DNA of 64,000 nt from Malacoraja senta (GCA_038087875.1 CM075990.1:17858001-17922000), one strand, 5' to 3'; positions 3,945 to 40,501 are shown, counted from the stretch's first letter. Numbers and translations are program-made. The notes: generated from the sequence alone by a model not told the origin.

Positions 3945-4036
3945 GATGACAGGCACTAGAGTAACTCAGCGGTTCAGGCAGCGTCTATGGAGAAAAAGGA
4001 TGGGTGACGTTTCGGGTCAGGAACCTTCTTCAGACT
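3945..4036 (-). mobile_element. Short Penelope-type (pLTR-derived) insert with degenerate hammerhead core
   Basis: rc agtCTGAAGAaggttcctgacccGAAAcgtc; 13-bp TSD ccaggaaatacta at 3932-3944 and 4037-4049. Confidence 0.7.
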
Positions 4037-5526
4037 CCAGGAAATACTAAGACTGAGTTTCTTCACAGGTGCCTGATATATGGGGTATTTCCAGTTTTGT
4101 CTGAAGTTTGCATTCTATGGAAAGCACCATACACAGGAATACATACATTGTTTCATGGCCGTCTCTCTAGTTATCTCTGAGCAAAACAGACTGTTGGGGG
4201 AAACTGTAACTCTGATACTTGGCCTAATGTTGCCCTTAACAACAGTCACCGCTGCCCCAGCATATCAAGAAGGTGTTACTACAAGCCACATTATGCACAA
4301 ACTGCTGAACTCAGCGGGTCAGGCAGCATCTGTGGAAGGAAATGGACAATGTTTTAGGTTGGGACCCATCTTCAGACTGTATAGGCCAAAAGTATTTGGT
4401 CAGGATTATTTGTTAATTAAATAGAATATTAAAGGTAGACAAATTCAAATAATTTTTTTTTAAAAACTTGAATCAATCCAGAGGGAGATTTAGAACAAAC
4501 ACATGATAACAGGTCGGGTGACAGTTTTGCCTGAAGATGGGCTTTCACAAAATGTCACAAGTGGACAACGTGAATACTAATTTTGTCAGAGAAACTCAAA
4601 TACATTTGCCAGAAGTAAAGCTCAACAGCTGAGCTGTGATTTATGTCACGAGATGTATTTCATGCTACATCCAGTGCCTTTCAACAACAAACTGTGTGAC
4701 TAACAGATCTGCCACTCTTTGAGATGAGGTGTTAATGTCTAGATATTGCCATTTCCCCAGATGACATTTTGTGCTTATAATGGATTCCACAGATGGTTCG
4801 GGATTCTGACACACCAGAAGGGTCTATGTCATCCTAGTCAGGGTATATAATGTACTTCAAAAAAATAATTCCATTAAAAAAGCAATTCTATTTTCTTTGA
4901 TAAAAAAAAATCCTGGCTTTCCATATTTATAATGACTGCAGTCTTCCATTTTAAGTTTCTTCTTAACTGTTGCTATTTTAAGAAATATAATAGCGACAAA
5001 TGTCATAGAACATGCATATAGCCAAAGGGTATCAACCACCAGAACAGAACCATTAAGAAATGAGAGGATGATCATGTGTTGCAGAGCAAGAGCTCATATT
5101 AACATGAACGTTGTCACATAAACCAGACCAGGTGGTGAAACTATTTCAGCCATCACATAAAGCCAAGGCCAAGGAGTTCTGCTTTTCACAGAGAATACAT
5201 TGAATTACAAATATCACAGGAAAAAAAATCATAAGATCTGATTCAATGATGTTCAAGTCAGCCACTCTACAGAGATGCAGTCACAGAATCTGATTTTCAT
5301 GCATCAATAAAAATCCATGAACCTCATAAGTTAGTGTTACCATAAATTACATGCTCCACTTTCATATCTGGTACAATAATTCTTAATCATCTGGAAGAGA
5401 TTACATAGAAAATAAGGGCGGGGAAAATGCACCAGGCCCTGCTCTACTCTGCCATTCAATACAATAACTGTTGAACCTGTTTGCTCTCTGCTTATTCTTT
5501 GTCCAGAAATTTATCACAGCTGTTGT

Positions 5527-5632
5527 GTTTAAGAAAGAACTACAGGTGCTGGTAAATCGAAGGTAGACAAAAATGCTGGATAACTCAACGGGTGAGGCAG
5601 CATCTATGGAGAGAAAGAATTGGCGACGTTTC
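5527..5632 (-). mobile_element. Penelope-type short repeat, truncated inside the hammerhead core
   Basis: Same family as 17732-17853 (aagaactacaggtgctgg...actcaacgggtgaggcagcatctatggag...gacgtttc). Confidence 0.65.
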
Positions 5633-6000
5633 ACAGCCGCCTGCTATAGAACACAGAACACTGCAGCACAGGAACAGACCCTTCGGCCAACAATGTCTTC
5701 CTGGGATGAAAACCAAATACTAGAGGACATAGCTTTGAAGTGAGAGGGGCAAAGTTTAAAGGAAATGTGCAGGACAATTTTATTTTACAGAGGGTGGTGA
5801 GTGCCTGGAATCCACTGATGAGAGTGGTGGTGGAGGCAGTTACATGAATGGCATTTAAGAGACTTTTGGCTTGGCAAATGCATATGCAGGGAATGGAGGG
5901 GTATGGATTATGTGCAGGTAGATAAGAGATGGTCGGCATCATGTTCGGCACAGACACTGTGGGCCAAAGGACCTGTTCTTGTGCTGTACTGTTCTATATG
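5630..6000 (+). mobile_element. Degenerate CR1 3' fragment(s)
   Basis: actagaggacatagcttt...agagggtggtgagtgcctggaa...ggacctgttcttgtgctgtactgttctat. Confidence 0.7.
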
Positions 6001-6084
6001 CACAGTTCTCAACATAGACAATTGCTTGGCTATTTCACAAGGAAATTGATCCTGCTCGTAATCAACACGTATATAACCATGTTG

Positions 6085-6412
6085 AGCTGACCAAAATGTT
6101 AAATGGTCAGCTCAACATAGATTACAAGACCTACACCAAACCCAAACCAATTAGGAGTAGACGAGGACATTCGATCCAATTTGAGATTCCAGCTACCAAG
6201 ACAGATGTGTACAGCAATTCATTCTTCCCCCGCACAATTAAAGCATGGAATAATCTTCTCCCTACCATAGTTACCCAACCAGATGCAACTAAATTTAAGG
6301 TAGCTCTTTCTTCCCAAAAACCCTTTCTGGCTTAAGTCCTCCCTCCACCACCTCCAGTTTAAATTCCATTTGGAATATTTTGGAGGACCAAGAAAACAAG
6401 AACCAAGAACCA
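6085..6412 (+). mobile_element. 3' end of a CR1/L2-group LINE (Crack/Daphne-like)
   Basis: RSRRGH..SNSFFPRTIKAWNNLLP C-terminal motif; short 3' UTR ending in caagaac repeats. Confidence 0.65.
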
Positions 6413-7021: not shown

Positions 7022-7033
7022 TTAGGATCCTAA

Positions 7034-7633: not shown

Positions 7634-7917
7634 TAAGTGCAGTACATTAATTTCATGTTTCCTGTTTCCTCCTCATAGAATGCACTGTATATATTTTTAA
7701 TCCTCTTTCTCTGGTTATCTTGTCTGTAGAGTTAAGTGTTTCAGGTTCATGTGTTGGCAATTTCTTCTTTTATACACAGAATGGTGGGTGCCTGGAATGC
7801 GCTGCCAGGGGTGGTGGTGGAGGCAGTCACCATAGTGCCGTGTAAGAGGGGTTTAGATAGGTACATAGATATGCAGGGAACCTGCAGGCAGATGAGATCA
7901 GTTTATGAGATTAGTGT

Positions 7918-7945
7918 CTGATGAAGGGTCTCGACCTGAAACGTT
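7918..7945 (+). ncRNA. Minimal hammerhead ribozyme core in a Penelope-type insert (7916-8011; TSD tgagattagt) inside a CR1 3' fragment
   Basis: CTGATGA-a-GGGT ctcg ACCT-GAAA-CG-TT; palindromic ACGT helix III. Confidence 0.6.
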
Positions 7946-8087
7946 ACCTATTCCTTTTCTCCAGAGATGCTGCCTGACCCGCTGAGTTACTCCAGCATAT
8001 TGTATCTATCTTGAGATTAGTTTAACTTGGCATCGTGTTCGGCACTGTCAAAAGGACCTGTTACTGTGCTCTGTTCTATATATTCTA

Positions 8088-17396: not shown

Positions 17397-17731
17397 CTAC
17401 AAAATGAAATGCAGTTTACATCATTGCTCATCAGTTTGTGTTAATTCATCAAATAACTCACCTAGGGGTCGCGGTAACTTATCAGACTAGGAAGGGTATC
17501 GGGAGAGGATTTTCCTTTGATCTCAAAGAAGCAACCTGCATGACAAACAATCCCATGGTTGCAATTATGTAAACTCCTTGGCTCATTCATACAAAAATCC
17601 TCTTCTACATTTGTCTTTGTGGTGAGATGCAACACTACTTCTTACCTATGTCATGCTTCCAAATCCAAGGTTTGTGTCAAAATCAGTGCTTTTGTATGTT
17701 TCCATCCGTAAAAGACACCATAACAGTTTAA

Positions 17732-17978
17732 GAAGGAACTGCAGATGCTGGAAAATCGAAGGTACACAAAAATGCTGGAGAAACTCAGCGGGTGCAGCAG
17801 CATCTATGGAGCGAAGGAAATAGGCAACGTTTCGGGCCGAAACCCTTCTTCAGCTTTTTCCTTTCTTCTCCCCACCCCCCATCAGTCTGAAGAAGGGTTT
17901 CGGCCCGAAACGTTGCCTATTTCCTTCGCTCCATAGATGCTGCTGCGCCCGCTGAGTTTCTCCAGCATTTTTGTGTAC
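17732..17978. mobile_element. Penelope-type insert with inverted pLTR arms, each with a hammerhead core
   Basis: Arms 17761-17853 and 17887-17979 are reverse complements (one mismatch); 14-bp TSD ccataacagtttaa (17718-17731, 17979-17992). Confidence 0.8.
17887..17914 (+). ncRNA. Minimal hammerhead ribozyme core
   Basis: CTGAAGA-a-GGGT TTCG GCCC-GAAA-CG-TT; mirror copy on the minus strand at 17826-17853. Confidence 0.62.
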
Positions 17979-18149
17979 CCATAACAGTTTAATATACTTT
18001 TTGTTAGACAACCCATTGCTCATACAATTTTTTTTAACAGCTGGAATTTTATGTTGAGCATTATTAAAGTAGTAATAACAGCAGAAAATGTTGGTAACAC
18101 TCAATTGGCCAGGTAGCAGTTGTGCAGAAACAAAAGTCCATATTTCAGT

Positions 18150-18177
18150 CTGAAGAAGGGTCTCGACCCGAAATGTC
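18150..18177 (+). ncRNA. Minimal hammerhead core in Penelope-type insert 18149-18239 (TSD agtccataYttcag)
   Basis: CTGAAGA-a-GGGT CTCG ACCC-GAAA-TG-TC. Confidence 0.58.
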
Positions 18178-18542
18178 ACCCATTCTCTCTCCAGAGATGC
18201 TGCCTGTCCCGCTGAGTTACTCCAGCATTTTGTGTCTACAGTCCATACTTCAGCTCAATAACTGTGTACCATGAATCCAAAAGTGTCTTTACAATAGACT
18301 GCGTGAGGTCACCAGAAAAAATATATATTAGTGGACAAATAGTGAAACTATTAATAAAAACTTTGTTGGGTGACTCAAACAGCCTAATATACTTCACATA
18401 ACGTTTCTAACTTACACTCAGACTATGGTTATAGTGCAGGCTTTTGTTCAGAATTCATGGTGTTGTTTGCAGCCTAAAAGTACATTTGCCAGGATTCCCT
18501 GAGAGATTAGTTTTAGCAGCTCTGCAATTCTTGGCATCTATG

Positions 18543-21545: not shown

Positions 21546-24452
21546 ATCCTACTGGCCAACGTACAGTCCCTTGAAAATAAAGTGGAGGACTTAAGGACAA
21601 GACTGCTTTATCAAAGGGAGCTGAGGGAATGCTCTGTGTTGCTTCAGAGACATGGCTCACCCCCAGCTCCCCAGACACAGCGGTCCAGCCTGAAGGGTTC
21701 TCCATCCACCGTATGGACCATACACTGGCATCTGGGAAAGGAAGAGGAGGGGGCGTCTGCCTCATGGTCAACTCTGCGTGGTGCTCAGACGTGGCAGTTC
21801 TGTCCAACTCCTGCTCTCCACACCTCGAACATCTGGCGGTGAAGTGTCGTCCCTTCTACCTTCCGAGGGAATTCACCTCCATTATCCTGACCGCGGTCTA
21901 CATCCCACCTCAGGCAGACGTCCGTCTGGCACTGGAGGAGCTGCACGCCGTGGTCAACAAACACCAGACGTCTTACCCCGAGGCATTTACCAACATTGCT
22001 GGGGACTTCAATAAGGCAAACCCAAAGAAATCACTCCCTAACTTCCACCAACATGTCTCCTGCTGCACCAGAGGATCAAACACCCTCGACCACTGCTACA
22101 CCACCATCAAGAATGCCTATCGCTCTATCCCTTGCCCTCACTTCGGTAAATCCGACCATACTGCGGTACTGCTTCTTCCTGCCTACAGGGAGCAATTAAA
22201 GAGCGCACCCACAGAGGTGAGGACAGTGCAGAGCTGGTCGGGGGGGTGGGGGGCAGAGGAACAACTACAGGACTGTTTGGAGTCTGTAGACTGGGCAATG
22301 TTCAAGGACTCGGCAACGGACTTGAACGAATACGCCACAGTCGCTACAGACTTCATTAAGAAATGTGTGGAGGACTGCATCCCTACAAAAACCTTCCGAG
22401 TGTTTCCCAATCAGAAACCTTGGATGAACTTTCAGATCCGCACTCTTCTGAAGACCAAACACCGGGCATTCATGTCTGATGATACAGTGGTCTACAAGAA
22501 GTCCAGATACGACCTTGGTAAGGCCATCAAAAAGGCCAAAAGGGACCTGCTCCAAACTGGAGGATGCGACAGATGTTCGGCAGCTGTGGCGGGGCCTGAA
22601 TGCAATCACCTCCTACAAGGCGAAATCAGGAGGCAGCTCGAATGTTGGCGAAAAATCACTCCCTGATGAGCTTAATGCGTTTTACGCACGCTTTGATAGG
22701 GAGAACACCGATGTGCCTTCCCGAGCTCCCATTCGCTGTGATGGTATTTCAGTCTCAGTCACAGAGGCCGACGTCAGGAAATCCTTCAGAGGGGTGAACC
22801 CTCGAAAAGCGCCTGGACCTGATGGTATACCTGGTCGTGTTCTAAAAACCTGTGCGGACCAACTGGCTGGAGTTTTTACAGACATTTTCAACCTCTCACT
22901 TCTGAGGTCTGAGGTTCCCACCTGCTTAAAAAGGGCATCAATCATACCAGTGCCCAAGAAGAGCAAGGTGACGTGCCTCAATGACTATCGACCTGTGGCA
23001 CTAACGCCTGTGGTGATGAAGTGCTTTGAGAGGTTGATCATGGTGCAAATCAACTCCTACCTCAACAAAAACCTGGACCCACTGCAGTTTGCTTACCGCC
23101 ACAACAAATCAACGGTGGATGCGATCTCGCTGGCCCTCCACTCCGCTCTGGACCACTTGGACAACAAAAACTCATATGTCAGGCTGTTATTCATCGATTA
23201 CAGCTCGGCATTTAATACAATCATCCCCTTCAAGCTGGTTACCAAACTCGCAGAACTGGGTATCTGCGCATCCCTCTGCAATTGGATCCTCGACTTCCTC
23301 ATTCTCAGACCACAGTCTGTTCGTATTGGTGGAAATGTGTCAGACTCGATAACAATCAGCACGGGAGCACCTCAAGGCTGCGTGCTCAGCCCCCTGCTGT
23401 ACTCACTCTATACTCATGACTGCGTAGCCGGTCATAGTGCGAACTCGATCATCAAGTTCGCTGACGACACCACTGTTGTGGGACGTATCACTGATGAGGA
23501 TGAGTCAGAAGAGAGATCGAGCAACCGTCCATATGGTGCCAGCACAATAACCTGGCCCTCAACACCAGCAAAACCAAGGAACTGATTGTGGACTTTGGAA
23601 GGAGTAGGATGGGGACCCACAGTCCCGTTTATATCAATGGGTCGATGGTTGAAAGGGTCAAGAGCTTTAAATTCATGGGTACACAAAAATACTGGAGGAA
23701 CTCAGCGGGTGCAGCAGCATCTATGGAGCGAAGAAAATAGGCAACGTTTCGGGCCGAAACCCTTCTTCAGAATTCTTTAAATTCCTGGGCGTGCACATCT
23801 CTGAGGATCTTTCCTGGTCCGAGAACACTGATGCTACTATTAAGAAAGCACATCAGCGCCTCAACTTCCTGAGAAGATTACGGAGAGTTGGTTTGTCAAG
23901 GAGGACTCTAACTTCTACAGGTGCACAGTAGAGAGCATGCTGACCGGTTGCATCGTGGCTTGGTTCGGCAACTTGAGCGCCCTGGAGAGGAAAAGACTAC
24001 AAAGTGTAGTAAACACTGCCCAGTCCATCATCGGCTCTGACCTCCCTTCCATCGAGGGGATCTATCGCAGTCGCTGCCTCAAAAAGGCTGGCAGTATCAT
24101 CAAGGACCCACACCATCCTGGCCACACACTCATCTCCCTGCTACCTTCAGGTAGAAGGTACAGGAGCCTGAAGACTGCAACGTCCAGGTTCAGGAATAGC
24201 TACTTCCCCACAGCCATCAGGCTATTAAACTTGGCTCGGACAAAACTATGAACATTAATAGCCCATTATCTGTTACTTGCACTTTATCAGTTTATTTATT
24301 CATGTGTGTATATATTTTTATAATGATATATGGACACACTGATCTGTTTTGTAGTCAATGCCTTCTATGTTCTGTTGTGCTGAAGCAAAGCAAGAATTTC
24401 ATTTGCCTATCAGGGACACATGACAATAACTCACTTGACTTGACTTGACTTG
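21546..24452 (+). mobile_element. Rex1/Babar LINE, APE-RT with frameshifts, (cttga)n tail
   Basis: LANVQSLENK, CRPFYLPREF, GDFN, SDH, LDPLQFAYR, GAPQGCVLSPLLYSLYT, KFADDTT, LLPSGRRYRS. Confidence 0.92.
23743..23770 (-). ncRNA. Minimal hammerhead core in a Penelope-type insert (~23677-23774; TSD ctttaaattc) within Rex1; identical copies at 27590-27617 and 31436-31463
   Basis: rc CTGAAGA-a-GGGT TTCG GCCC-GAAA-CG-TT. Confidence 0.58.
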
Positions 24453-25120
24453 ATATGATTTTAAAGTGGGCAAGATGAATGTTCAGGTATCAGGTGACAC
24501 CAAGACTTGGATTCTACATGGAGATTTCAAAACACTGATCACACCAATCTCACGATTTCACTTGGTCTGTGGTAGAGATTTCCTTACTTTGCCCATTCAG
24601 ATCACACTTGAGAAAGTGGTGGCAACTGTCTTTCTGACCACAGGTCATGTAGTGAAGCGACATCCTCAAAGGTGCCTGACAAAGGACAAAGGACATTTAT
24701 TGTCACATACACCAAATGGTGTAGTGAAATTTGGTTGCTTCAGCAATGACATAGTGATTGATATAGATATATGTCAGAATCAGAAGGGTGTGGTTGGGTT
24801 TTTGTGTACTCCTGAGCATTCACTCCCTCTGATTGACTGCACATTGCAATTCTGATTATGACGGTTTTTTCCAGCTTTCAAGTTAACTTTTTCTTTCCAT
24901 TACCATCACTTCAGTGTTTGATTACTTTTCCAGCTTTCTGTTAACGTATTACTTTTATTCTCTCTCTCACTCGATTTATTTATTTATTTATTGTATTTAT
25001 CTTTCCTTTCCTGCTCTGAAATCAAAGAGGTAGGGCGATGAACGTTCAAGTATACTGAAAACATATTTATGGAATGAAAAATAATGAAAGTATACTGTTT
25101 CAGTTAAAAAATGATTAGTT

Positions 25121-26692
25121 TTTTTTTTTGTTTTGTTTATTTTATTAGAAGTTAATACAATATAAAACAATACAGTGGCACCTAATTTTAGGTGCCAACT
25201 ATGTCATAACGTAATGCATTCTATGTACAACCTCTAGTTTTATGTTTTAGAAAAGGAGGTAAAAAAAAAAAAAAAAGAAAGAAAAAAAAAAGAGAAAAAA
25301 AAGAGGAAAAATAAATAGTAGAAAATAGAAAAACGTGAAGTGTGTATATAAGAAAAGAAAAAATAGAAAGTAGAAATAGTAGAAAAAGACCCTTAAAAAT
25401 GAAATTTTCAAATCTTTCTTTGGAGATGTAAATCTATCCACGACCTGACCTGAAATCAGTAATCTTTACGGTACTGCTGCATCACATGATTCCAAAAAGT
25501 CGATGAAAGGTGACCAACTCCTTAAGAATTGGTCATATTTATCTATTAGGCGGAGTCTCATTTCTTCAAGGTGTGCTATGTCCGTCATATTCCTAATCCA
25601 CATTTTAATAGTTGGTATAGCTGTATTTTTCCAAAATTTAAGTATCAATTTCTTTCCAATTATTAACCCATAATTAAAGAATACTTTTTGGTCTTTGTTT
25701 AAATTGATATCTTCTAATATTATTCCAAATATAATCCATTCCATATTAGGTTCTATTCTTGACTTGAAGAGCTTTGTAAATATATCAAATATATCGCTCC
25801 AAAATGTGTTCAACTTTGTACATCCTACAAATGAATGTGTTATATTGGCATTTTGAAACAAACATTTATCGCATCTGGGAGAGACATTTGGGTAAAATTT
25901 ATTCAACCTCGTTTTTGAATAATATAGTCTATGTAATAATTTAAATTGAATTAAATTATGTCTTGCATTAATGGAACAATTATGTGTATTCATCAGATAC
26001 TTTTCCCATCTATCTTTCGGGATCTTTAGCATTAGTTCATGTTCCCAATCTTCTCTTAGTGCCTCTGTTGAGGGTAATTCTCTATTTAATATACTATTAT
26101 AAAAATATGATATTAGTTTTTCTGAATCAGCCTTAATATTCATTGCTTCTTCTAATGGTCTAAAAATATAGTTTGAGATCTATGTATATATTTCTTCATA
26201 AAGTCACATATCTGTATATATTTAAAATATTGATTATCATTCAGTTTAAATTTAAATTTTAATTGTTGAAATGATAACAATTTGCCCAGTTCATACATAT
26301 CTCCTACTTTCCAATCCCCAATCTATCCCATTGTTTATATGTTTTATCGATAAGAGATGGTTTGAATGCAGGATTATTCAGAATTGGGGTTAATACTGAT
26401 AGATTATTTAATTTCAAGGATAATTTTATTTATTTCCAAATTCTTATTGTATTGTGAATAATTGGGTTCTTCTTATATATCATACTATTCAATTTTATTG
26501 GTGAGAACAAGATCGTTCCTATATCGTACGGGAAACACTCCTCTTTTTCCATTCTTATCCACTCCGACTGGTGAGTTGAACTATCCGACCAGTACATTAT
26601 GTTCTTAATATGCACTGCCCAGTAGTAATACGTAAAGTTAGGTAGTGATAAACCCCCAGCTTCTTTAGGTTTACACAAATGCTTTCGTTGAA
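25121..26692 (-). mobile_element. 5'-truncated L1 (ORF2 C-terminus with CCHC zinc knuckle, 3'UTR, polyA); copies at ~28967-30540 and ~32823-34400
   Basis: GGLSLPNF, CDKC..HSFVGC; probable TSD aatgattagtt (25110-25120, 26703-26713). Confidence 0.88.
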
Positions 26693-29600
26693 TTAGTTAG
26701 AGAATGATTAGTTAGAGAATTATGCAAGAGAGTTACTACAGTTTTTTGTGTCTATCTTCAGTTTAAACCAGCACTTGCAGTTACTTCTGAAAGAGTTAAT
26801 ACAGTCAAATCTAATAGGGTTCACAAAATTGAGTTGCTGTAATTGTTCTTCTTACTAATTTAAGTCGGCGCTCATCTTTCCCCCATCCCACCCCCCCACA
26901 AGGAAAATTCTGGAATTTGTTTTTCTAAATGAAAGCTCTCCCCAAGAATCTGATTAAAACGGATTTTTAAAAATCTCATCCCCCCCCACCCCCACCCCTT
27001 GAGGTGGAAACTGCTGTTCCCATTGTGATGTAATTGTGGGCTGAAAGACTGTTCATGAGCAGGTTATGTAAATGAGATCCCATTGTGATGTCATAGCTCT
27101 AACTGCCACCGCTGAATCTTTCCCAAATTGGATTTAGTAAAGCTAAAAATGTTAATATCTAGTAAAATATAACACCAATCTAAACGAAACTTGTTGAAAA
27201 CACGCCACAGGACAATTGTGAGTAAGGTGGAGCAAAATTTGTAGCCTTATCATGTACCGTTTTGGCGCAATTTCAGGATCTCACTCACTTAATCACACAT
27301 GCTCACAGACAGACATCCAAACAAGATGAGAGTTTTAGTAATATACTAGACCAAGTGGGACCCGTTGGTCCTCATTCTCCCAACGCAATATTCCACCACT
27401 CACCCATTCCCCCAATGCAACCCGTTTTCACCACTCACCTGTTCCCCCCAACATAACCCGTTCTCCCAACGCAATATTCCACCACTCACACATAGACCCC
27501 AACTGGGCAGGCGTGGCTCATTTCCCCTCACAAAAATACTGGAGGAACTCAGCGGGTGCAGCAGCATCTATGGAGCGAAGAAAATAGGCAACGTTTCGGG
27601 CCGAAACCCTTCTTCAGAATTCTTTAAATTCCTGGGCGTGCACATCTCTGAGGATCTTTCCTGGTCCGAGAACACTGATGCTACTATTAAGAAAGCACAT
27701 CAGCGCCTCAACTTCCTGAGAAGATTACGGAGAGTTGGTTTGTCAAGGAGGACTCTAACTTCTACAGGTGCACAGTAGAGAGCATGCTGACCGGTTGCAT
27801 CGTGGCTTGGTTCGGCAACTTGAGCGCCCTGGAGAGGAAAAGACTACAAAGTGTAGTAAACACTGCCCAGTCCATCATCGGCTCTGACCTCCCTTCCATC
27901 GAGGGGATCTATCGCAGTCGCTGCCTCAAAAAGGCTGGCAGTATCATCAAGGACCCACACCATCCTGGCCACACACTCATCTCCCTGCTACCTTCAGGTA
28001 GAAGGTACAGGAGCCTGAAGACTGCAACGTCCAGGTTCAGGAATAGCTACTTCCCCACAGCCATCAGGCTATTAAACTTGGCTCGGACAAAACTATGAAC
28101 ATTAATAGCCCATTATCTGTTACTTGCACTTTATCAGTTTATTTATTCATGTGTGTATATATTTTTATAATGATATATGGACACACTGATCTGTTTTGTA
28201 GTCAATGCCTTCTATGTTCTGTTGTGCTGAAGCAAAGCAAGAATTTCATTTGCCTATCAGGGACACATGACAATAAACTCACTTGACTTGACTTGACTTG
28301 ATATGATTTTAAAGTGGGCAAGATGAATGTTCAGGTATCAGGTGACACCAAGACTTGGATTCTACATGGAGATTTCAAAACACTGATCACACCAATCTCA
28401 CGATTTCACTTGGTCTGTGGTAGAGATTTCCTTACTTTGCCCATTCAGATCACACTTGAGAAAGTGGTGGCAACTGTCTTTCTGACCACAGGTCATGTAG
28501 TGAAGCGACATCCTCAAAGGTGCCTGACAAAGGACAAAGGACATTTATTGTCACATACACCAAATGGTGTAGTGAAATTTGGTTGCTTCAGCAATGACAT
28601 AGTGATTGATATAGATATATGTCAGAATCAGAAGGGTGTGGTTGGGTTTTTGTGTACTCCTGAGCATTCACTCCCTCTGATTGACTGCACATTGCAATTC
28701 TGATTATGACGGTTTTTTCCAGCTTTCAAGTTAACTTTTTCTTTCCATTACCATCACTTCAGTGTTTGATTACTTTTCCAGCTTTCTGTTAACGTATTAC
28801 TTTTATTCTCTCTCTCACTCGATTTATTTATTTATTTATTGTATTTATCTTTCCTTTCCTGCTCTGAAATCAAAGAGGTAGGGCGATGAACGTTCAAGTA
28901 TACTGAAAACATATTTATGGAATGAAAAATAATGAAAGTATACTGTTTCAGTTAAAAAATGATTAGTTTTTTTTTTTGTTTTGTTTATTTTATTAGAAGT
29001 TAATACAATATAAAACAATACAGTGGCACCTAATTTTAGGTGCCAACTATGTCATAACGTAATGCATTCTATGTACAACCTCTAGTTTTATGTTTTAGAA
29101 AAGGAGGTAAAAAAAAAAAAAAAGAAAGAAAAAAAAAAGAGAAAAAAAGAGGAAAAATAAATAGTAGAAAATAGAAAAACGTGAAGTGTGTATATAAGAA
29201 AAGAAAAAATAGAAAGTAGAAATAGTAGAAAAAGACCCTTAAAAATGAAATTTTCAAATCTTTCTTTGGAGATGTAAATCTATCCACGACCTGACCTGAA
29301 ATCAGTAATCTTTACGGTACTGCTGCATCACATGATTCCAAAAAGTCGATGAAAGGTGACCAACTCCTTAAGAATTGGTCATATTTATCTATTAGGCGGA
29401 GTCTCATTTCTTCAAGGTGTGCTATGTCCGTCATATTCCTAATCCACATTTTAATAGTTGGTATAGCTGTATTTTTCCAAAATTTAAGTATCAATTTCTT
29501 TCCAATTATTAACCCATAATTAAAGAATACTTTTTGGTCTTTGTTTAAATTGATATCTTCTAATATTATTCCAAATATAATCCATTCCATATTAGGTTCT

Positions 29601-32600
29601 ATTCTTGACTTGAAGAGCTTTGTAAATATATCAAATATATCGCTCCAAAATGTGTTCAACTTTGTACATCCTACAAATGAATGTGTTATATTGGCATTTT
29701 GAAACAAACATTTATCGCATCTGGGAGAGACATTTGGGTAAAATTTATTCAACCTCGTTTTTGAATAATATAGTCTATGTAATAATTTAAATTGAATTAA
29801 ATTATGTCTTGCATTAATGGAACAATTATGTGTATTCATCAGATACTTTTCCCATCTATCTTTCGGGATCTTTAGCATTAGTTCATGTTCCCAATCTTCT
29901 CTTAGTGCCTCTGTTGAGGGTAATTCTCTATTTAATATACTATTATAAAAATATGATATTAGTTTTTCTGAATCAGCCTTAATATTCATTGCTTCTTCTA
30001 AATGGTCTAAAAATATAGTTTGAGATCTATGTATATATTTCTTCATAAAGTCACATATCTGTATATATTTAAAATATTGATTATCATTCAGTTTAAATTT
30101 AAATTTTAATTGTTGAAATGATAACAATTTGCCCAGTTCATACATATCTCCTACTTTCCCAATCCCCAATCTATCCCATTGTTTATATGTTTTATCGATA
30201 AGAGATGGTTTGAATGCAGGATTATTCAGAATTGGGGTTAATACTGATAGATTATTTAATTTCAAGGATAATTTTATTTATTTCCAAATTCTTATTGTAT
30301 TGTGAATAATTGGGTTCTTCTTATATATCATACTATTCAATTTTATTGGTGAGAACAAGATCGTTCCTATATCGTACGGGAAACACTCCTCTTTTTCCAT
30401 TCTTATCCACTCCGACTGGTGAGTTGAACTATCCGACCAGTACATTATGTTCTTAATATGCACTGCCCAGTAGTAATACGTAAAGTTAGGTAGTGATAAA
30501 CCCCCAGCTTCTTTAGGTTTACACAAATGCTTTCGTTGAATTAGTTAGAGAATGATTAGTTAGAGAATTATGCAAGAGAGTTACTACAGTTTTTTGTGTC
30601 TATCTTCAGTTTAAACCAGCACTTGCAGTTACTTCTGAAAGAGTTAATACAGTCAAATCTAATAGGGTTCACAAAATTGAGTTGCTGTAATTGTTCTTCT
30701 TACTAATTTAAGTCGGCGCTCATCTTTCCCCATCCCACCCCCCCACAAGGAAAATTCTGGAATTTGTTTTTCTAAATGAAAGCTCTCCCCAAGAATCTGA
30801 TTAAAACGGATTTTTAAAAATCTCATCCCCCCCCACCCCCACCCCTTGAGGTGGAAACTGCTGTTCCCATTGTGATGTAATTGTGGGCTGAAAGACTGTT
30901 CATGAGCAGGTTATGTAAATGAGATCCCATTGTGATGTCATAGCTCTAACTGCCACCGCTGAATCTTTCCCAAATTGGATTTAGTAAAGCTAAAAATGTT
31001 AATATCTAGTAAAATATAACACCAATCTAAACGAAACTTGTTGAAAACACGCCACAGGACAATTGTGAGTAAGGTGGAGCAAAATTTGTAGCCTTATCAT
31101 GTACCGTTTTGGCGCAATTTCAGGATCTCACTCACTTAATCACACATGCTCACAGACAGACATCCAAACAAGATGAGAGTTTTAGTAATATACTAGACCA
31201 AGTGGGACCCGTTGGTCCTCATTCTCCCAACGCAATATTCCACCACTCACCCATTCCCCCAATGCAACCCGTTTTCACCACTCACCTGTTCCCCCCAACA
31301 TAACCCGTTCTCCCAACGCAATATTCCACCACTCACACATAGACCCCAACTGGGCAGGCGTGGCTCATTTCCCTCACAAAAATACTGGAGGAACTCAGCG
31401 GGTGCAGCAGCATCTATGGAGCGAAGAAAATAGGCAACGTTTCGGGCCGAAACCCTTCTTCAGAATTCTTTAAATTCCTGGGCGTGCACATCTCTGAGGA
31501 TCTTTCCTGGTCCGAGAACACTGATGCTACTATTAAGAAAGCACATCAGCGCCTCAACTTCCTGAGAAGATTACGGAGAGTTGGTTTGTCAAGGAGGACT
31601 CTAACTTCTACAGGTGCACAGTAGAGAGCATGCTGACCGGTTGCATCGTGGCTTGGTTCGGCAACTTGAGCGCCCTGGAGAGGAAAAGACTACAAAGTGT
31701 AGTAAACACTGCCCAGTCCATCATCGGCTCTGACCTCCCTTCCATCGAGGGGATCTATCGCAGTCGCTGCCTCAAAAAGGCTGGCAGTATCATCAAGGAC
31801 CCACACCATCCTGGCCACACACTCATCTCCCTGCTACCTTCAGGTAGAAGGTACAGGAGCCTGAAGACTGCAACGTCCAGGTTCAGGAATAGCTACTTCC
31901 CCACAGCCATCAGGCTATTAAACTTGGCTCGGACAAAACTATGAACATTAATAGCCCATTATCTGTTACTTGCACTTTATCAGTTTATTTATTCATGTGT
32001 GTATATATTTTTATAATGATATATGGACACACTGATCTGTTTTGTAGTCAATGCCTTCTATGTTCTGTTGTGCTGAAGCAAAGCAAGAATTTCATTTGCC
32101 TATCAGGGACACATGACAATAAACTCACTTGACTTGACTTGACTTGATATGATTTTAAAGTGGGCAAGATGAATGTTCAGGTATCAGGTGACACCAAGAC
32201 TTGGATTCTACATGGAGATTTCAAAACACTGATCACACCAATCTCACGATTTCACTTGGTCTGTGGTAGAGATTTCCTTACTTTGCCCATTCAGATCACA
32301 CTTGAGAAAGTGGTGGCAACTGTCTTTCTGACCACAGGTCATGTAGTGAAGCGACATCCTCAAAGGTGCCTGACAAAGGACAAAGGACATTTATTGTCAC
32401 ATACACCAAATGGTGTAGTGAAATTTGGTTGCTTCAGCAATGACATAGTGATTGCTTCAGCAATGATATAGATATATGTCAGAATCAGAAGGGTGTGGTT
32501 GGGTTTTTGTGTACTCCTGAGCATTCACTCCCTCTGATTGACTGCACATTGCAATTCTGATTATGACGGTTTTTTCCAGCTTTCAAGTTAACTTTTTCTT

Positions 32601-34719
32601 TCCATTACCATCACTTCAGTGTTTGATTACTTTTCCAGCTTTCTGTTAACGTATTACTTTTATTCTCTCTCTCACTCGATTTATTTATTTATTTATTGTA
32701 TTTATCTTTCCTTTCCTGCTCTGAAATCAAAGAGGTAGGGCGATGAACGTTCAAGTATACTGAAAACATATTTATGGAATGAAAAATAATGAAAGTATAC
32801 TGTTTCAGTTAAAAAATGATTAGTTTTTTTTTTTGTTTTGTTTATTTTATTAGAAGTTAATACAATATAAAACAATACAGTGGCACCTAATTTTAGGTGC
32901 CAACTATGTCATAACGTAATGCATTCTATGTACAACCTCTAGTTTTATGTTTTAGAAAAGGAGGTAAAAAAAAAAAAAAAAGAAAGAAAAAAAAAAGAGA
33001 AAAAAAAGAGGAAAAATAAATAGTAGAAAATAGAAAAACGTGAAGTGTGTATATAAGAAAAGAAAAAATAGAAAGTAGAAATAGTAGAAAAAGACCCTTA
33101 AAAATGAAATTTTCAAATCTTTCTTTGGAGATGTAAATCTATCCACGACCTGACCTGAAATCAGTAATCTTTACGGTACTGCTGCATCACATGATTCCAA
33201 AAAGTCGATGAAAGGTGACCAACTCCTTAAGAATTGGTCATATTTATCTATTAGGCGGAGTCTCATTTCTTCAAGGTGTGCTATGTCCGTCATATTCCTA
33301 ATCCACATTTTAATAGTTGGTATAGCTGTATTTTTCCAAAATTTAAGTATCAATTTCTTTCCAATTATTAACCCATAATTAAAGAATACTTTTTGGTCTT
33401 TGTTTAAATTGATATCTTCTAATATTATTCCAAATATAATCCATTCCATATTAGGTTCTATTCTTGACTTGAAGAGCTTTGTAAATATATCAAATATATC
33501 GCTCCAAAATGTGTTCAACTTTGTACATCCTACAAATGAATGTGTTATATTGGCATTTTGAAACAAACATTTATCGCATCTGGGAGAGACATTTGGGTAA
33601 AATTTATTCAACCTCGTTTTTGAATAATATAGTCTATGTAATAATTTAAATTGAATTAAATTATGTCTTGCATTAATGGAACAATTATGTGTATTCATCA
33701 GATACTTTTCCCATCTATCTTTCGGGATCTTTAGCATTAGTTCATGTTCCCAATCTTCTCTTAGTGCCTCTGTTGAGGGTAATTCTCTATTTAATATACT
33801 ATTATAAAAATATGATATTAGTTTTTCTGAATCAGCCTTAATATTCATTGCTTCTTCTAAATGGTCTAAAAATATAGTTTGAGATCTATGTATATATTTC
33901 TTCATAAAGTCACATATCTGTATATATTTAAAATATTGATTATCATTCAGTTTAAATTTAAATTTTAATTGTTGAAATGATAACAATTTGCCCAGTTCAT
34001 ACATATCTCCTACTTTCCCAATCCCCAATCTATCCCATTGTTTATATGTTTTATCGATAAGAGATGGTTTGAATGCAGGATTATTCAGAATTGGGGTTAA
34101 TACTGATAGATTATTTAATTTCAAGGATAATTTTATTTATTTCCAAATTCTTATTGTATTGTGAATAATTGGGTTCTTCTTATATATCATACTATTCAAT
34201 TTTATTGGTGAGAACAAGATCGTTCCTATATCGTACGGGAAACACTCCTCTTTTTCCATTCTTATCCACTCCGACTGGTGAGTTGAACTATCCGACCAGT
34301 ACATTATGTTCTTAATATGCACTGCCCAGTAGTAATACGTAAAGTTAGGTAGTGATAAACCCCCAGCTTCTTTAGGTTTACACAAATGCTTTCGTTGAAT
34401 TAGTTAGAGAATGATTAGTTAGAGAATTATGCAAGAGAGTTACTACAGTTTTTTGTGTCTATCTTCAGTTTAAACCAGCACTTGCAGTTACTTCTGAAAG
34501 AGTTAATACAGTCAAATCTAATAGGGTTCACAAAATTGAGTTGCTGTAATTGTTCTTCTTACTAATTTAAGTCGGCGCTCATCTTTCCCCCATCCCACCC
34601 CCCCACAAGGAAAATTCTGGAATTTGTTTTTCTAAATGAAAGCTCTCCCCAAGAATCTGATTAAAACGGATTTTTAAAAATCTCATCCCCCCCCACCCCC
34701 ACCCCTTGAGGTGGAAACT

Positions 34720-36940
34720 GCTGTTCCCATTGTGATGTAATTGTGGGCTGAAAGACTGTTCATGAGCAGGTTATGTAAATGAGATCCCATTGTGATGTCA
34801 TAGCTCTAACTGCCACCGCTGAATCTTTCCCAAATTGGATTTAGTAAAGCTAAAAATGTTAATATCTAGTAAAATATAACACCAATCTAAACGAAACTTG
34901 TTGAAAACACGCCACAGGACAATTGTGAGTAAGGTGGAGCAAAATTTGTAGCCTTATCATGTACCGTTTTGGCGCAATTTCAGGATCTCACTCACTTAAT
35001 CACACATGCTCACAGACAGACATCCAAACAAGATGAGAGTTTTAGTAATATACTAGACCAAGTGGGACCCGTTGGTCCTCATTCTCCCAACGCAATATTC
35101 CACCACTCACCCATTCCCCCAATGCAACCCGTTTTCACCACTCACCTGTTCCCCCCAACATAACCCGTTCTCCCAACGCAATATTCCACCACTCACACAT
35201 AGACCCCAACTGGGCAGGCGTGGCTCATTTCCCCTCATCCCCCAAGACTCCCTCCCCCTCCTCTTCATCCTCCCTCATCTCTCCCCTCTCCTCCTCCCCT
35301 CCTCCATTCCCTCCCTCACCTCTCCCTCCCCTTTTCCCTACCCTCAGTCACTCCCTCCCACCCTCCATAACCCCTCCCTAACCCCCATGACCCATTGCGC
35401 CCCGTTCCCCCTACGCAATATTCCACCACTCACCTGTTCCCCCAACGCAACCCGTTTCCACCACTCACCCATTCCCCCAACGCAACCCGTTCCCCCAACG
35501 CAATATCTACCACTCATCCGTTCCCCAACGCAACCCGTTTCCACCACTCACCCATTCCCCCAACGCAACCCGTTCCCCCAACGCAATATTCTACCACTCA
35601 CCCATAGCCCCCAACTGCTCAGGCAAGGCTCATACACTCCCTCGCCCTCCTCTTCACCCACCCTCTTCTCCTCCCTCTCCTTTTCCCTACCCTCAGTCAC
35701 TCCCTCCCTCACCTCTCCCCTATCGCACTCCCCCACTACATACAATGTTTAAATAACATTTCTTCTCCTCCCTCCCTTCCCCCTCCCTCTCCTTACAACA
35801 AATCTCTCATTGAACTGGGTGGAACGCTGTTGATAGGCTGGAGGACTGTTCATGGCAGCTTATATAAATGAGATCCCATTGTGACGTCATAGCTGGAAAC
35901 TGCCAGAATCTCCCAGCAGCTGCCACAGCAACTGCCAAGTTATTGTTCTCAAAGTGGGGTTTTGTAAAGTCTTAAATGTGAATATTAGCGCTGTCGTGTA
36001 TCGTTTTGGCGTGGGTCCAGGATTACATGTGCGCGCATAGATAGATAGAAACAAGATGAGAATTTTAGTAATATACTAGACCAAGTGGGGCCCGTTGGTC
36101 CCTGTCACACGGGAGGCCTGGTCCCCCAACGCAACCCGTTCCCCCAACGCAATATTGGAACACTCACCCATAGCCCCCAAGGAAGGCCTGGCCCCCCAAC
36201 GCAGTCCGTTCCCCAACATAAGACTCCACCACTCACCCGTTTCCCCAACGCAACCCGTTCCCCCAATGCAATATTCCACCACTCACCCATAGCCCCCAAC
36301 TGAGCAGGTCGGCTCATTTTTTCAACCTCCCTCATTTTAAACTTTTAAAAAATTGCAATTGCACTAACATTTTTTAATTCTTTAATGTGATGTAGGTGCC
36401 ACCAACATGGCCATACAACTTTGCTGTGGCTTTGCAGTCATATGTGTGCTGGGTTAGGCTGGCAGATTCTTCCCCTGAAGGACATTTGCTGTCAAGGACT
36501 CAATGTCCTGGGATAGCAACATTGTAGCTAGGGCATTGTGATGTCATAGCTGGTAACTTCCAGTTCAGATTTTAAGAAATCCTTCTCAAAGTGGGGTTTT
36601 GTAAATTTTTTAATGTCATTAATTTGCGAAATATAACATCAATCTGATGTGACACGTGACACAAACGACCACAGGACAATGGTGAGTAAGGTGGTGCAAA
36701 AATGTTAGCGCTATCCTGTACCGTTTTAGCGTAGTTCCGGGATCACATGGATACTCGCACGTATAAATATAGATAGAAACAAACAAGATGAGAGGATCGA
36801 TAGATAGATACAAACAAGATGAGAGGATAGATAGATAGTTACAAACAAGATGAGAGGATAGATAGTTACAAACAAGATGAGAGGATAGATAGATAGTTGC
36901 AAACAAGATGAGATGATCGATAGGTAGATAGATAGATAGT
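34720..36940 (-). mobile_element. Head-to-tail array of non-autonomous Helitron-like units with internal minisatellites; partial copies also at ~27010-27528 and ~30860-31374
   Basis: rc 3' end GGACC-aacg-GGTCC-cacttggt-CTAG joined to 5'-type tatattactaaaactctcatcttg at 35053 and 36076. Confidence 0.68.
36776..36938 (+). repeat. Tandem ~27-31-bp units acaaacaagatgagagga(taga)n, about 5 copies
   Basis: Direct repeats; amplified Helitron-like 5' motif plus GATA microsatellite. Confidence 0.85.
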
Positions 36941-37579: not shown

Positions 37580-38268
37580 TAAAGCATTCACGCAGCCCTT
37601 TAGGAGGTCAATGAGAACAACCCAGGAACTCTTCACAAAGAATATCATACAGCTAGTTGCTTTTACTTCCATTTACTACAAAACAGTCAACTATGTATTT
37701 GTATGCTCCTAAAACATGAAAATGACATGTTGAGAAGCTGACCTTAATACACTGCAACTTTAACTCCCTCAATTTTATAAAATGTTATGGTCTGTATAAA
37801 ATGCAAGGGATATTCTTTCACAAGCCTTTAATAGGGAAAATCAAGTGTGATTTCTCAAGGTAGTGTCAAATGTTTGTTCAATTTCCTACTACTAAAATAT
37901 AATTGTATTTGCAAAAGCTTTTGAAATATTTCAATTTTTTCTACCCAATTGTTTGATCTTTAAAAGGTACTGGATATACTGATTGCATCCTATTTCATTT
38001 CAATCTTTAGCAATATGTTTCAGGCCTGCTGGCTTTGAGTGCTGGCTTGTGCTTTGACAGTTACATTCTTAATTCAAGATGAGAGGAATGAGAAGAGTAA
38101 CATTTCATAACTTAAGGAGTGTCAAGGTCTCTGATATTTAATGAGGCAAATATCAAAGCAGTTACATCAAAAGTAAAATGTACACATTTATCAATTTTTT
38201 AATTCCATTATTTATGAACTAACATTCGCATTATTGGAACACTGTTTCAAACAAAGCAAAGCACTTAC

Positions 38269-38362
38269 TGAAATCAATCAGGAACCTTCCAAAGCCTTGC
38301 CTTTGGTACTGGGGCATGATCATTATGCAAGAGACATTGTACTTCTGCTGGCAAAGCTTTTC
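38269..38362 (-). CDS. KAT6B: KAT6B internal coding exon with acetyl-CoA binding motif ([32 protein letters not shown])
   Basis: QRQGFG motif A; ccccAG acceptor, GTAAGT donor; 94 bp, ends phase 1, matching the next exon. Confidence 0.93.
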
Positions 38363-38544
38363 CTGGGGGACGGAGAAATAGATATGGTTGGTCAGTGCTC
38401 TGCGATGCTGACAACATGTATTACCCATAACTGTCCTTGTCTAATGTCACAGCAACCTCGGCAAACACTGATAGCGAATACTAACGACAGTTGATGATCT
38501 ATGTTGTTTTCAGTCAGATCCAAATTGTCATCTCTGTTGTTGAA

Positions 38545-39345
38545 CCTTGGGGCTCATGTCGATGGTTTCTTGAAAGTGGCAACACAGGTGGGTGGGATGG
38601 TGAAGGCAGCAAATGGCATGCTTGCCTTCGCAGCTGAGGGAGGGCATGGAATATAACAGTTGGGATGTTATGCTGTAACGTTACTAAACACTGATAGATT
38701 GCATTTGAAGTACTGTGTGCACGATTTCAGTTATGGGAAAATACTAGATAGGGTGGGCTCTTTTTCACTGGAGTAAAGAAGGCTGAGGAAGAACAGATCA
38801 AATTATAGGAGCAGACAGTTAGAATATTTTTCACATGGACACAAGGTGCTGGAGCAACTCAGCAGATCAGGCAGCATTTCCAGAGAACATGGATAGGTGA
38901 CGTTTTGGGTCAAGACCTTTCTTCAGAAGAAATCTGAAGAAGTCTTCTTCAGTCTGAAGAAGGGTCTCAACCCAAAACATGGTCTATCCGTGTTCTCCGG
39001 AGATGCTGCCTGATCTGCTGAGTTACTCCTTTTGTGTATTAACAAGCATTTACAGTTCCTTGTTTCTACTTATTTTTCCCATGGTATGGATATTAAAAAA
39101 CAAGAAGATATAGGTGAAGAGAAAGTGAGAGAAAAGTGTTTGAAATGTTTTTGGGGGCAAGTTTTTTTGCACAGAGAATGGTTGACATCTGCAACTCACT
39201 GAGGTGGTGAAATCAACTGCTATTGGAGTTTAAATAGGCAAGATATTGAAAGATACGGACCTAACATGGGCATACAAAATTAGGGTAGTTGGGCAAAAAA
39301 GTATCGGGCGGGCCAACAGGTCTGTGATGTACAACTCTATGACTG
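38545..39345 (+). mobile_element. Old CR1 3' fragment interrupted by an inverted Penelope-type pair (~38838-39068) with decayed hammerhead cores
   Basis: ttgaaagtggcaacacaggtg..aatggcatgcttgccttc; insert arms ..gacgttttgggtcaagacctttcttcag / ctgaagaagggtctcaacccaaaac.. Confidence 0.7.
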
Positions 39346-40501
39346 TTTGACAAACAGACGATGTACATGGATTATCTATGTATTAAAATCTTTTCAATTT
39401 AATTTTTCAATATAATAATGCAAAAGACACGTCTTTGAAAACTTGGTTTGCCCAGCAATTTCCTTCAAAATACATATTTACGCTTAAGTATAGAAAGGCA
39501 TTATATATTTTGTACAGAATGGAATGTTAAACTGTGATTCAAATTAACAAACAGTTAATAGGATACATTTAGTGAAGAACTAGGCTGCTGCTGAAATAAA
39601 CAAAATCTACTTCAGCCTTAGGATTTAAAAAAAATTAAAACCATTTGACATTTTTGCTCGATCAATATTTAGCAGGCAATCAATGCACCCTGATGCTGCA
39701 TAAATTAAACCTCTTTATTAGGTTAATCCAAATAATAGATGGTTCAAAACTAGCAGACGTTGTTGTACCTGCAGTAAAGGTGAAAGGATAGGTTAGATAT
39801 ATTCCAGCTTCATTTTCCAAACTGAACAGACATTCATGGTGCATGGGTAAGGGTAAACTACCCACAAAACTACTAGACAACCCTATCTATTCGATCCATA
39901 ACCCCTGCAATACTGCACACAATACCTGTTTTACCTTCAGAAATCTATTTCAAAAGTAGTTCAGACAAATAAACAAGGAAATGAATACAGAGCCTTTCCA
40001 TTCCCCGCTGATGATAAAAGTCAAACAGCATCAAGTAATCTCTAAATGGAATAATCACTCTGTATTAAATTTGGGTAAACTTGCAGTCTGATAAAACATT
40101 GAATGTTGTCATGATATCTGCAACTGCACCAATGCATGGTTTGCTGCGCTGTATACAATATTAGGTCATCCAACAACGAATTCCCCTTTAAAATACACAA
40201 AGTGCTGGAGAACATGGACAGGTGATGTTTCGGATCAGAACTCTTCAATTCCCTTTCTAGCCTTGAAACATTGGAGGAGGTGTGCTGTTCTGAACATCAT
40301 AATCATTATTGGAGGGATGTGGCCATTCTGCCTGCTGGGTTCATGCCAGCTCCCTGCAGAGCAATCCTATCAGTCCATTCTGCTGCTTTTTCCCCAGGAG
40401 CATGCAAACCTTCTCCCCCTCATGCCTATCCATTCCCTATCAGAAACTATGGCAGACAGTCTTATTATTATTATTATGTTTAAAGGAAGTGGGTTGCAGA
40501 T

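Follow-up and report, generated by a model that had tools for sequence, protein, structure and literature searches.

How did short inserts carrying minimal hammerhead ribozyme motifs come to be scattered over a skate chromosome, and does the ribozyme set their boundaries? We addressed this question in a 64,000-nt stretch of Malacoraja senta DNA (GCA_038087875.1 CM075990.1:17858001-17922000; referred to as the window), in which an earlier note had proposed a dense, non-autonomous Penelope-type family. A strict minimal-hammerhead descriptor (CUGAnGA, helix II of at least 3 bp, GAAA, pairable 15.2/16.2, and UH) gave seven matches in the window, with five independent arms positive, while Markov controls gave no match in 98/100 and a single match in 2/100. 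By itself, the loose pattern discriminated weakly: it matched 10 times where the mean was 4.4, and 2/100 shuffles scored equally high. The intact cores of arms A, D to H, I, and J, and the decayed copies of arms B, C, K-L, and M, all previously proposed, were present (Table 1), and the proposed density of roughly one per 5 kb agreed with 12 loci in ~56 kb of unique sequence. A CTGATGA match at 1078 was rejected: it sits within a LINE fragment, outside the hammerhead family.

Table 1. Arms, loci, and associated features in the window (positions counted from its first nucleotide)
Feature	Position	Strand	Core	TSD	Description
Arm A	3945..4036	-	4006-4033	3932-3944 and 4037-4049; 13 bp, exact	Short-ended; one helix II mismatch
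Arm B	4287..4379	-			Short-ended; decayed (G12->A and 16.2 G->A, both CpGs)
Arm C	5528..5633	-			Long-tailed; 5'-truncated at GAAA box, without CUGA or helix II
Arm D	7916..8011	+	7918-7945	7893-7905 and 8012-8024; 1 mismatch	Short-ended; 10-nt additional target copy at 7906-7915
Arm E	17726..17853	-	17826-17853	Left, 17718-17731	Long-tailed half of head-to-head pair
Arm F	17854..17978	+	17887-17914	Right, 17979-17992	Short-ended half of EF insertion
Arm G	18145..18239	+	18150-18177	18135-18148 and 18240-18253; 1 mismatch	Short-ended; last 4 nt of TSD overlap native 5' sequence
Locus O	20430..20499	.			Tail-only arm (-) and short-end stub (+); without hammerhead
Tandem unit	23682..35237	.			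3,847 bp, three copies; 99.6-99.7% identity, indels only
Arm H	23680..23774	-	23743-23770	23665-23679 and 23775-23789; 1 mismatch	Short-ended; directly downstream of LINE RT-encoding frame
Arm N	26743..26791	+		14 bp; 1 mismatch	Tail-bearing 3' stub without hammerhead
Arm I	27529..27621	-	27590-27617		Copy of H at start of second 3,847-bp unit; no independent insertion
Arm J	31375..31467	-	31436-31463		Copy of H at start of third 3,847-bp unit; no independent insertion
Arm K	38839..38927	-	Decayed	Left, 38825-38838	Short-ended half of second head-to-head pair
KL junction	38928-38949				Palindromic; assembled from CUGA-box repeats
Arm L and junction	38928..39070	+	Decayed	Right, 39071-39084	Long-tailed
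Arm M	40189..40246	-	Decayed		Short-ended; internal deletion of ~30 nt
Arm P	51218..51277	-			Tail-bearing 3' stub without hammerhead; E 0.0015; beyond the range of the earlier note

The core (C3 U4 G5 A6 N7 G8 A9, G12 A13 A14, A15.1, U16.1, and H17) was complete in arms A, D, E, F, G, and H, and broken at G12 in B, K, and L. As anticipated in the earlier note, it was more conserved than the rest of the element: among eight arms, 3/88 differences at 11 core positions versus 100/621 elsewhere (column-permutation p ~0.005; 0.04 when restricted to the four divergent arms), all three being G12->A at a CpG. Two downstream boxes, picked post hoc, equalled the core in conservation (2/72 and 0/64). 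All 11 core positions were properly spaced, though the arms, which fall into several coexisting subfamilies, were only 68-89% alike. The assignment to Penelope-type inserts with minimal type I hammerheads was borne out by the motif (PMC4209133): an extra unpaired base between A9 and G10.1 was found in 9/9 arms; position G10.1-C11.1 was G-C in 5/8, G-U in 2/8, and unpaired in 1/8; and the palindromic ACGU (15.2-16.2), permitting a dimeric helix III, was retained in 5/8 independent arms, the remaining three having CpG transitions. The minimal hammerhead motif is genuine, and very abundant here.

The covariation claimed for helix II was not recovered: none of its four pairs had a two-sided change (0/6 including helix I; a small sample of eight arms). 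Changes in the 4-bp helix II and the 2-bp helix I (87.5% of cells paired) were one-sided only, U-G/U-A and G-C/G-U, and 500/500 shuffles scored equally high. Inspection by eye for distal pairing that would extend helix I showed registers that vary between subfamilies. The Infernal/Rfam check suggested in the earlier note gave nine matches at E<=5, none of them a hammerhead model, the best being hairpin artefacts from the EF inversion. The minimum-energy fold differed from the hammerhead in 9/10 folded pieces; in the tenth (B), helix II appeared in a weak fold. In 6/6 arms the active dimer was predicted to be 20-37 kcal/mol less stable than the best fold; these energy models disfavoured ribozyme activity of the solo copies.

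The anatomy of the insertions (tail, inverted pairs, TSDs, and an empty site) supported a PLE origin more strongly than the motif did. Nine arms were short-ended (A, B, D, F, G, H, K, M, and the plus-strand part of O), and 6/15 carried a tail of 30-36 nt (C, E, L, N, P, and the minus-strand part of O). A tailed and an untailed arm were joined head-to-head in EF and KL clearly, and probably also in O, which would be a third such insert; O is flanked by an exact 9-bp direct repeat (20421-20429 and 20500-20508; found by eye, weak). TSDs were present as claimed, but their length was 13-15 bp instead of 10-14 bp, in 7/12 loci (counting those with at most one mismatch as convincing; 1/295 random positions scored equally high); a convincing TSD was looked for at arm B without success. 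Insert EF was missing in a relative (organism E), in which a record joins 17717 to 17979 with a single TSD copy, while the start of arm G was found in this relative too. One sequence record contains the arm F stretch 17854-17950. The possibility that arm A had inserted into an older hammerhead was rejected: the rebuilt empty site gave no family-profile match. At several 3' junctions a microhomology of 1-6 nt was found: 6 nt at E, where the end of the tail coincides with the left TSD, 2 nt at F and H, and 1 nt at D.

The proposal that edges fall at the CUGA core held for 8/11 hammerhead-bearing arms, which begin at -5 to 0 of C3, and failed for five arms or loci: the start of F lies 33 nt upstream and that of C ~20 nt downstream, and a hammerhead is missing from N, O, and P. 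The 33 nt of native sequence in F consist of a pyrimidine tract ending in CAG-T immediately 5' of the core, and the same tract and CAG were found in loose ends from sequencing runs. In some PLEs, a spliceosomal intron ends on the 5' side of helix I. The insert edges do not match the cleavage site but precede it by ~28 nt, which argues against hammerhead cleavage setting the insert boundaries. The arms lacked poly(A) and simple-repeat tails, a search of the window for tRNA genes gave none, and the TSD-bounded arms shared no head upstream.

The cores at 23743, 27590, and 31436 do exist, but they do not represent three separate inserts: they are one insertion within the triplicated 3,847-bp unit, which on the left breaks off within arm H, 2-4 nt in from the short 3' end. 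Two further occurrences of arm N are likewise owed to the triplication.

No coding partner was found in the window. PLE coding sequence was absent from the scanned window frames and from protein searches with element frames, and no GIY-YIG family match was obtained in 169 stop-to-stop frames (a scan that for the most part skipped long LINE bodies and both additional tandem units) or across 50001-64000 in all six frames. In the protein-database search with element frames, 4/16 candidates passed, two being Leucoraja erinacea gene models in which the repeat is exonised; HMMER gave five matches, one a chance PKD-repeat protein; and 0/3 candidates passed with the ATG frame. All hits from these searches were either exonised copies or chance matches. 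No reading frame common to the subfamilies starts within the repeat, and pattern scans for a longer copy gave no match in any of two viral, two metagenome, and one prokaryote collections. The lack of an RT/GIY-YIG ORF is expected of truncated ends. The non-autonomous family earlier proposed was not established by the data: the variable 5' ends, the native sequence upstream of the core (in arm F and in the loose ends), and the coexisting subfamilies are all expected of 5'-truncated ends of longer PLEs. We consider it likely that the repeats are 5'-truncated 3' ends (a pseudo-LTR and an optional tail) of endonuclease-bearing Penelope-like retrotransposons of several subfamilies; their connection with an RT/GIY-YIG gene, the order of priming, and any cleavage are what we infer. 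The sharp 5' boundary, which is unlike the prediction of random truncation, the 2-bp helix I and 4-bp helix II without a covarying pair, the two downstream boxes conserved like the core, and the failure of the scans to find PLE coding sequence count against this model.

Such an element would insert as follows. Its GIY-YIG domain would make a staggered cut, 13-15 nt apart, and the freed 3' end would serve as primer for copying the element RNA from either of two internal start sites ~30-36 nt apart, the choice of which would yield a short-ended (~92 nt) or tailed (~128 nt) arm. When both target strands are primed, one per start site, a head-to-head pair within one TSD may result. Synthesis would usually halt within the ~5 nt that precede the CUGA box, and joining may proceed by microhomology or by fold-back at the self-complementary TCAG-T-CTGA near this box. 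The hammerhead would be kept by selection in the source elements, acting there as a dimer, probably with the help of protein, while in dispersed copies it would be passive inherited cargo that decays at CpGs after insertion.

These features were compared with those of known systems. In the available text on hammerheads of PLE terminal repeats (Cervera and de la Pena 2014, PMC4209133), the core boxes, extra base at A9/G10.1, G10.1-C11.1, and palindromic 15.2-16.2 without loop 3 are like those found here, and the motifs are mostly dispersed singles ascribed to truncated PLEs, with some close opposite-strand pairs and several consensus families per genome, as here. In its examples, helix II is 6-8 bp instead of 4 bp and helix I is 4-5 bp instead of 2 bp, although the Drosophila virilis variant also has 2 bp. 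The ~4,000 motifs given there for coelacanth and 9,000 for Xenopus would be far less dense than the five independent positives per ~56 kb found here, if the window is typical. Cartilaginous fish are unnamed among the hosts in that portion of the paper. Accounts of EN+ PLEs (Penelope/Poseidon and Neptune; PMC3846280, PMC8557442, and PMC2377424), as far as their text was available, share 5' truncation, TSDs, microhomology joins, an optional one-arm tail (30-40 bp there), head-to-head inversions, and palindromic junctions; TSDs are 8-10 bp in Adineta PLEs, shorter than those here. The strong 5' boundary at the core is a feature of the skate arms, which are known here without an ORF. In vitro, Anolis Poseidon (PAc; PMC11167929) uses two internal RT start sites that define the tail and extends both strands, a mechanism that predicts the tailed/untailed pairing of EF, KL, and probably O. 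The spacing from the hammerhead to the start site is similar, the distance from the cut site to the tail end being 100 nt here versus a computed 85-92 nt, and in both cases no RNA-seq ends were found at the cleavage site. The RT start of PAc is non-homologous to the cut DNA, whereas microhomology was found here.

The repeats are of a known kind, PLE ends with minimal hammerheads having already been described, in a new lineage and at high density. The described association is extended to skates, at an unusual density of about one locus per 5 kb, and the inserts are clear genomic instances of priming on both strands from two start sites, as observed in vitro for the anole element; their abundance means that counting alone could test whether a PLE hammerhead sets insert boundaries by cleavage. 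In the literature, we found no report of hammerheads in skate or ray repeats; the supplements of PMC4209133 or of bioRxiv 10.64898/2026.07.22.740005, or Repbase/Dfam, may contain the family.

Two other origins appeared very improbable. The absence of an Rfam hammerhead match, of covariation, and of a linked PLE gene, together with the predicted energy cost of the active dimer, would suit the tail of a SINE or LINE unrelated to PLEs, in which hammerhead-like letters occur by chance or are long dead; this is contradicted by the spacing and conservation of the 11 core positions across divergent arms, by seven descriptor matches against at most one in controls, by the tails and inverted pairs, and by the lack of a poly(A)/simple-repeat tail or tRNA head. 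Non-LTR retrozymes (PMC7229834; bioRxiv 10.64898/2026.07.22.740005) are likewise described, in the text available, as non-coding, with a type I hammerhead, and as kin of PLE terminal repeats; retrozymes derived from such repeats are reported from one chondrichthyan in the bioRxiv paper. If the arms were retrozyme monomers, arrays would be transcribed, cleaved as dimers, circularised, and reverse transcribed into dispersed monomers, and each DNA run did yield 26-41 contigs per row with head-to-tail joints (18238 back to 18145-18149; spacer length undefined). However, these amount to just ~0.05% of 290,092 contigs, the window contains no tandem unit of the element, the edges are off the cleavage site, and read ends did not accumulate there in one poly(A) run (a weak test). 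Furthermore, retrozymes are described as tandem hammerhead units with circular RNA, and an optional tail and inverted pairs are not among their features in the text available; the inserts here stand alone or inverted, with a minimal core and with TSDs.

A further reading takes solo ~92/128-nt copies in host transcripts as self-delimiting templates for a PLE enzyme in trans: reverse transcription would halt at the hammerhead fold or palindrome, so that a unit-length copy is remade without a promoter or cleavage. We regard this as unlikely. It would account for the 5' boundary in 8/11 arms; it would also fit the family being embedded in other transcripts in poly(A) RNA of a relative (24,644/7,335,232 reads; 0.34%), the report, in the part available, that Adineta terminal repeats suffice for trans mobilisation (PMC3846280), and the 3,847-bp tandem, which has a host-sense-oriented short-end site at its end. 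In spite of this, arm F and numerous reads and contigs contain native upstream sequence (1,012 reads and 832 contigs have pyrimidine-rich loose ends, with agreement of 0.47 and 0.38, respectively), and no arm has a transduced host flank besides the tandem. Core CpGs decay, yet the youngest copies (E, F, and H) have kept theirs, pointing to a small number of intact masters. The broader form, in which the hammerhead region is a boundary of reverse transcription and no cutter, copies in host transcripts are remade as promoter-less 92-/128-nt units ~10^5 times per genome, and read-past on nascent pre-mRNA duplicates host DNA in place, as in the tandem at the end of arm H, is similarly doubtful; if true, it would mean a retro-unit that needs no promoter and sets its own limits, and a way in which genes could be duplicated locally.

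With truncated PLE ends as the preferred reading, the sequencing runs gave several further observations. Across the family, the tail recurred as a consensus of loose ends in RNA as well as DNA runs, and 1,257 RNA reads had a loose end at 17726 in arm E. RNA reads were equal on both strands, which could reflect an unstranded library, the host exon being covered by no read; 97% continued into unlike sequence. Each DNA run contained 17-34 contigs per row with opposite-strand joints at 18145-18148.

The hammerhead cores proposed in the earlier note were all located by BLAST and a profile HMM, together with three extra 3' stubs; weak HMM matches at 2487, 16878, and 18152 were left out of the counts. 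A strict descriptor (CUGAnGA, helix II of at least 3 bp, GAAA, pairable 15.2/16.2, and UH) gave seven matches in the window versus none in 98 and one in 2 of 100 Markov controls. Since three of the seven represented one insertion (arm H), lying in a 3,847-bp unit that occurs in triplicate, the tally was 12 loci and 15 arms (single repeat copies) in ~56 kb of unique sequence. Eleven of these arms contained hammerhead sequence and 5 passed the descriptor. In the arms, CUGA(A/U)GA is followed by an extra base and a 4-bp helix II, then by GAAA, CGU, and H, which agrees with the traits of minimal hammerheads of Penelope-like elements (PLEs) in PMC4209133. The core was conserved beyond the remainder: among eight independent arms, 3/88 differences were found at 11 core positions (all G12 to A at CpG) versus 100/621 elsewhere. 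Fisher's test, which takes no account of the relatedness of the arms, gave p = 0.0006; column permutation gave p = 0.005, and 0.04 using four divergent arms. Two boxes downstream were as conserved as the core.

Most tested features of the proposed Penelope-type inserts with minimal type I hammerheads were found. Covariation of the helices was not: two-sided changes occurred in 0/6 pairs, a small sample. An Rfam scan of the window returned no hammerhead match. Monomers were predicted to favor mostly a hairpin pairing the purine-rich core with the pyrimidine tract past the cleavage site. For the active dimer fold, the computed energy exceeded that of the best fold by 20-37 kcal/mol in 6 of 6 arms (energies that include neither tertiary contacts nor proteins). 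Dimer cleavage of minimal motifs is regarded as established in a review (PMC6765202). Inverted pairs are no source of such a dimer because only one arm per strand is in sense and the pair forms a 93-bp hairpin. The helix II 3' strand and its mimic past the cleavage site vary together by subfamily (G/G in arms F and H versus A/A in arms D and G). Because the mimic matches this strand, the helix II 5' strand has two candidate partners, and a comparison of two subfamilies raises the possibility of an off/on switch.

Direct repeats of 13-15 bp with at most one mismatch flanked 7 of the 12 loci, a score equaled at 1/295 random positions. Nine arms end ~92 nt past C3 (the first core base) and six carry an additional 30-36 nt. 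The pairs EF and KL are head-to-head, each with one target site duplication (TSD), one tailed arm, and one untailed arm; O, a probable pair, looks the same but is strongly truncated. The KL junction consists of palindromic CUGA-box repeats. Public reads were compared over 17200-18300 using 4 of 24 listed runs. A contig from a relative (organism E) joined 17717 directly to 17979, with the EF insert missing and the 14-bp target single; the EF TSD thus arose on insertion and, since this contig extends into arm G, G is older than EF. From the loose ends came a consensus for the tail, a sharply defined long end at 17726, and, 5' of the core, a pyrimidine-rich consensus; the 33 nt upstream of F were present in one contig. 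Part of the family therefore carries element sequence beyond the hammerhead on its 5' side.

Of the 11 arms with hammerhead sequence, eight (A, B, D, E, G, H, K, and L) start at -5 to 0 of C3, which puts their edge ~28 nt 5' of the predicted cut. This edge was pinned by a TSD or an inversion junction in seven of them, and public-run contigs showed recurrent inversion joints at the same positions at other loci. The spot overlaps a 9-nt self-complementary stretch and a pyrimidine tract with CAG. In D. virilis, the 5' side of helix I marks the end of the intron (PMC4209133); a spliced template is unlikely here because several arms retain AG and no upstream exon common to the arms is seen. We infer that a reverse transcriptase (RT) stop or fold-back at the self-complementary structure sets the boundary.

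We consider it quite likely that the repeats are 5'-truncated PLE 3' ends from target-primed reverse transcription, which would begin at two start sites and would sometimes be primed from both strands; the predicted ribozyme would be under selection in source elements and decay in inserted copies. No RT/GIY-YIG gene linked to the repeats was found in the scanned frames of the window, or by protein or collection searches. In ray and skate genomes, such repeats presumably sit directly downstream of a GIY-YIG C-terminus. The repeats work like terminal repeats of PLEs that bear minimal type I hammerheads, and share most of the features tested. Tails, inverted pairs, palindromic junctions, and TSDs are reported for PLEs (PMC3846280, PMC8557442, PMC2377424, and PMC8969392), which occur in all vertebrate lineages (PMC4350176). 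In PMC11167929, a Poseidon protein uses two internal sites in the RNA, which delimit the tail, as starting points for extending both target strands, the Poseidon hammerhead cleaves only when the protein is present, and cleavage is dispensable for insertion in vitro. Judged by the tandem arrangement that characterizes retrozymes (PMC7229834 and bioRxiv 10.64898/2026.07.22.740005), the repeats are not of that type. They extend to skates a PLE-hammerhead association that was described before.

One breakpoint of the triplication falls within the short 3' end of H, 2-4 nt in from its edge and in host sense, and the other within a different repeat, with 2-nt microhomology; a post hoc hand estimate put the chance of the coincidence with the H end at ~0.5%. 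A PLE-end-primed duplication in cis, an ordinary duplication, or an assembly error or artefact may account for the triplication.

Contigs from two probable DNA runs mapped onto the arms (290,092 and 263,606, not a copy number), and the family is very abundant. The density was one descriptor-positive arm per 11 kb in one window; if typical, a genome of 2-2.5 Gb would hold ~2 x 10^5, a one-window extrapolation far above the 4,000-9,000 motifs of coelacanth and Xenopus. In the organism E poly(A) run (~6% read), 24,644/7,335,232 reads mapped to arms, with strands equal and 97% continuing into unlike sequence; no end pile-up was seen in these fragmented reads, which reveal ends poorly. This fits passive inclusion in host RNAs, in a library that may be unstranded. 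No report of the family in skates was found in the literature, although paper supplements and repeat libraries may contain it. The repeat was present in gene models named Leucoraja erinacea (87-90% identity), so the window comes from a skate or a near relative of skates. In three predicted skate gene models (P0001, P0003, and P0004), it is counted as coding sequence; in P0001, it starts exactly at the core, fitting a used, or predicted, splice-acceptor-like site.

Coordinates of features in the window
Position	Strand	Feature	Remarks
23682-35237		3,847-bp unit	three tandem copies, indel differences only
17854-17978	+	arm F	
18145-18239	+	arm G	
23680-23774	-	arm H	copied in units 2 and 3 (I, J)
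17887-17930; 18150-18193		helix II mimic	four bases past cleavage site resemble helix II 3' strand
~50.8-51.0, 38.3, 20.2-20.4 kb	-	MOZ/SAS exons	in profile order
52200-52490		N gap	between KAT6-type and vinculin-like exons, same strand, only ~7 kb apart
27346-27528; 35053-36330; 36760-36935		modular head-to-tail repeat	C-rich subrepeats of 18/35/83 bp, end motifs in common
42907-46200		open LINE frame	1,097 aa; broken copy at 9317-11833, 98-99% identical, 34,376 bp off
54241-57246		third LINE frame	endonuclease-RT, 1,001 aa, more distant
6810-7030; 7040-7640		MITE-like inverted-repeat elements	self-complementary ends, internal repeats
18560-19000; 59900-61300		common repeat with terminal inverted repeats	near 18.6-20.1 and 60-61.5 kb; recognised from translations and inverted-repeat context
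47704-48342; 48520-49639		DDE_3 transposase fragment and LINE fragment	LINE fragment with RNase H

Since the MOZ/SAS exons were arranged in profile order, most inserts are assigned to introns of a KAT6-type gene. Frames past the N gap, near 52.3 kb, are ones we take to be vinculin-like, and a large amount of sequence around this gap is probably absent or wrongly joined. LINE-type reading frames were plentiful in this vertebrate DNA, and the modular repeat presumably resembles a non-autonomous Helitron-type element.
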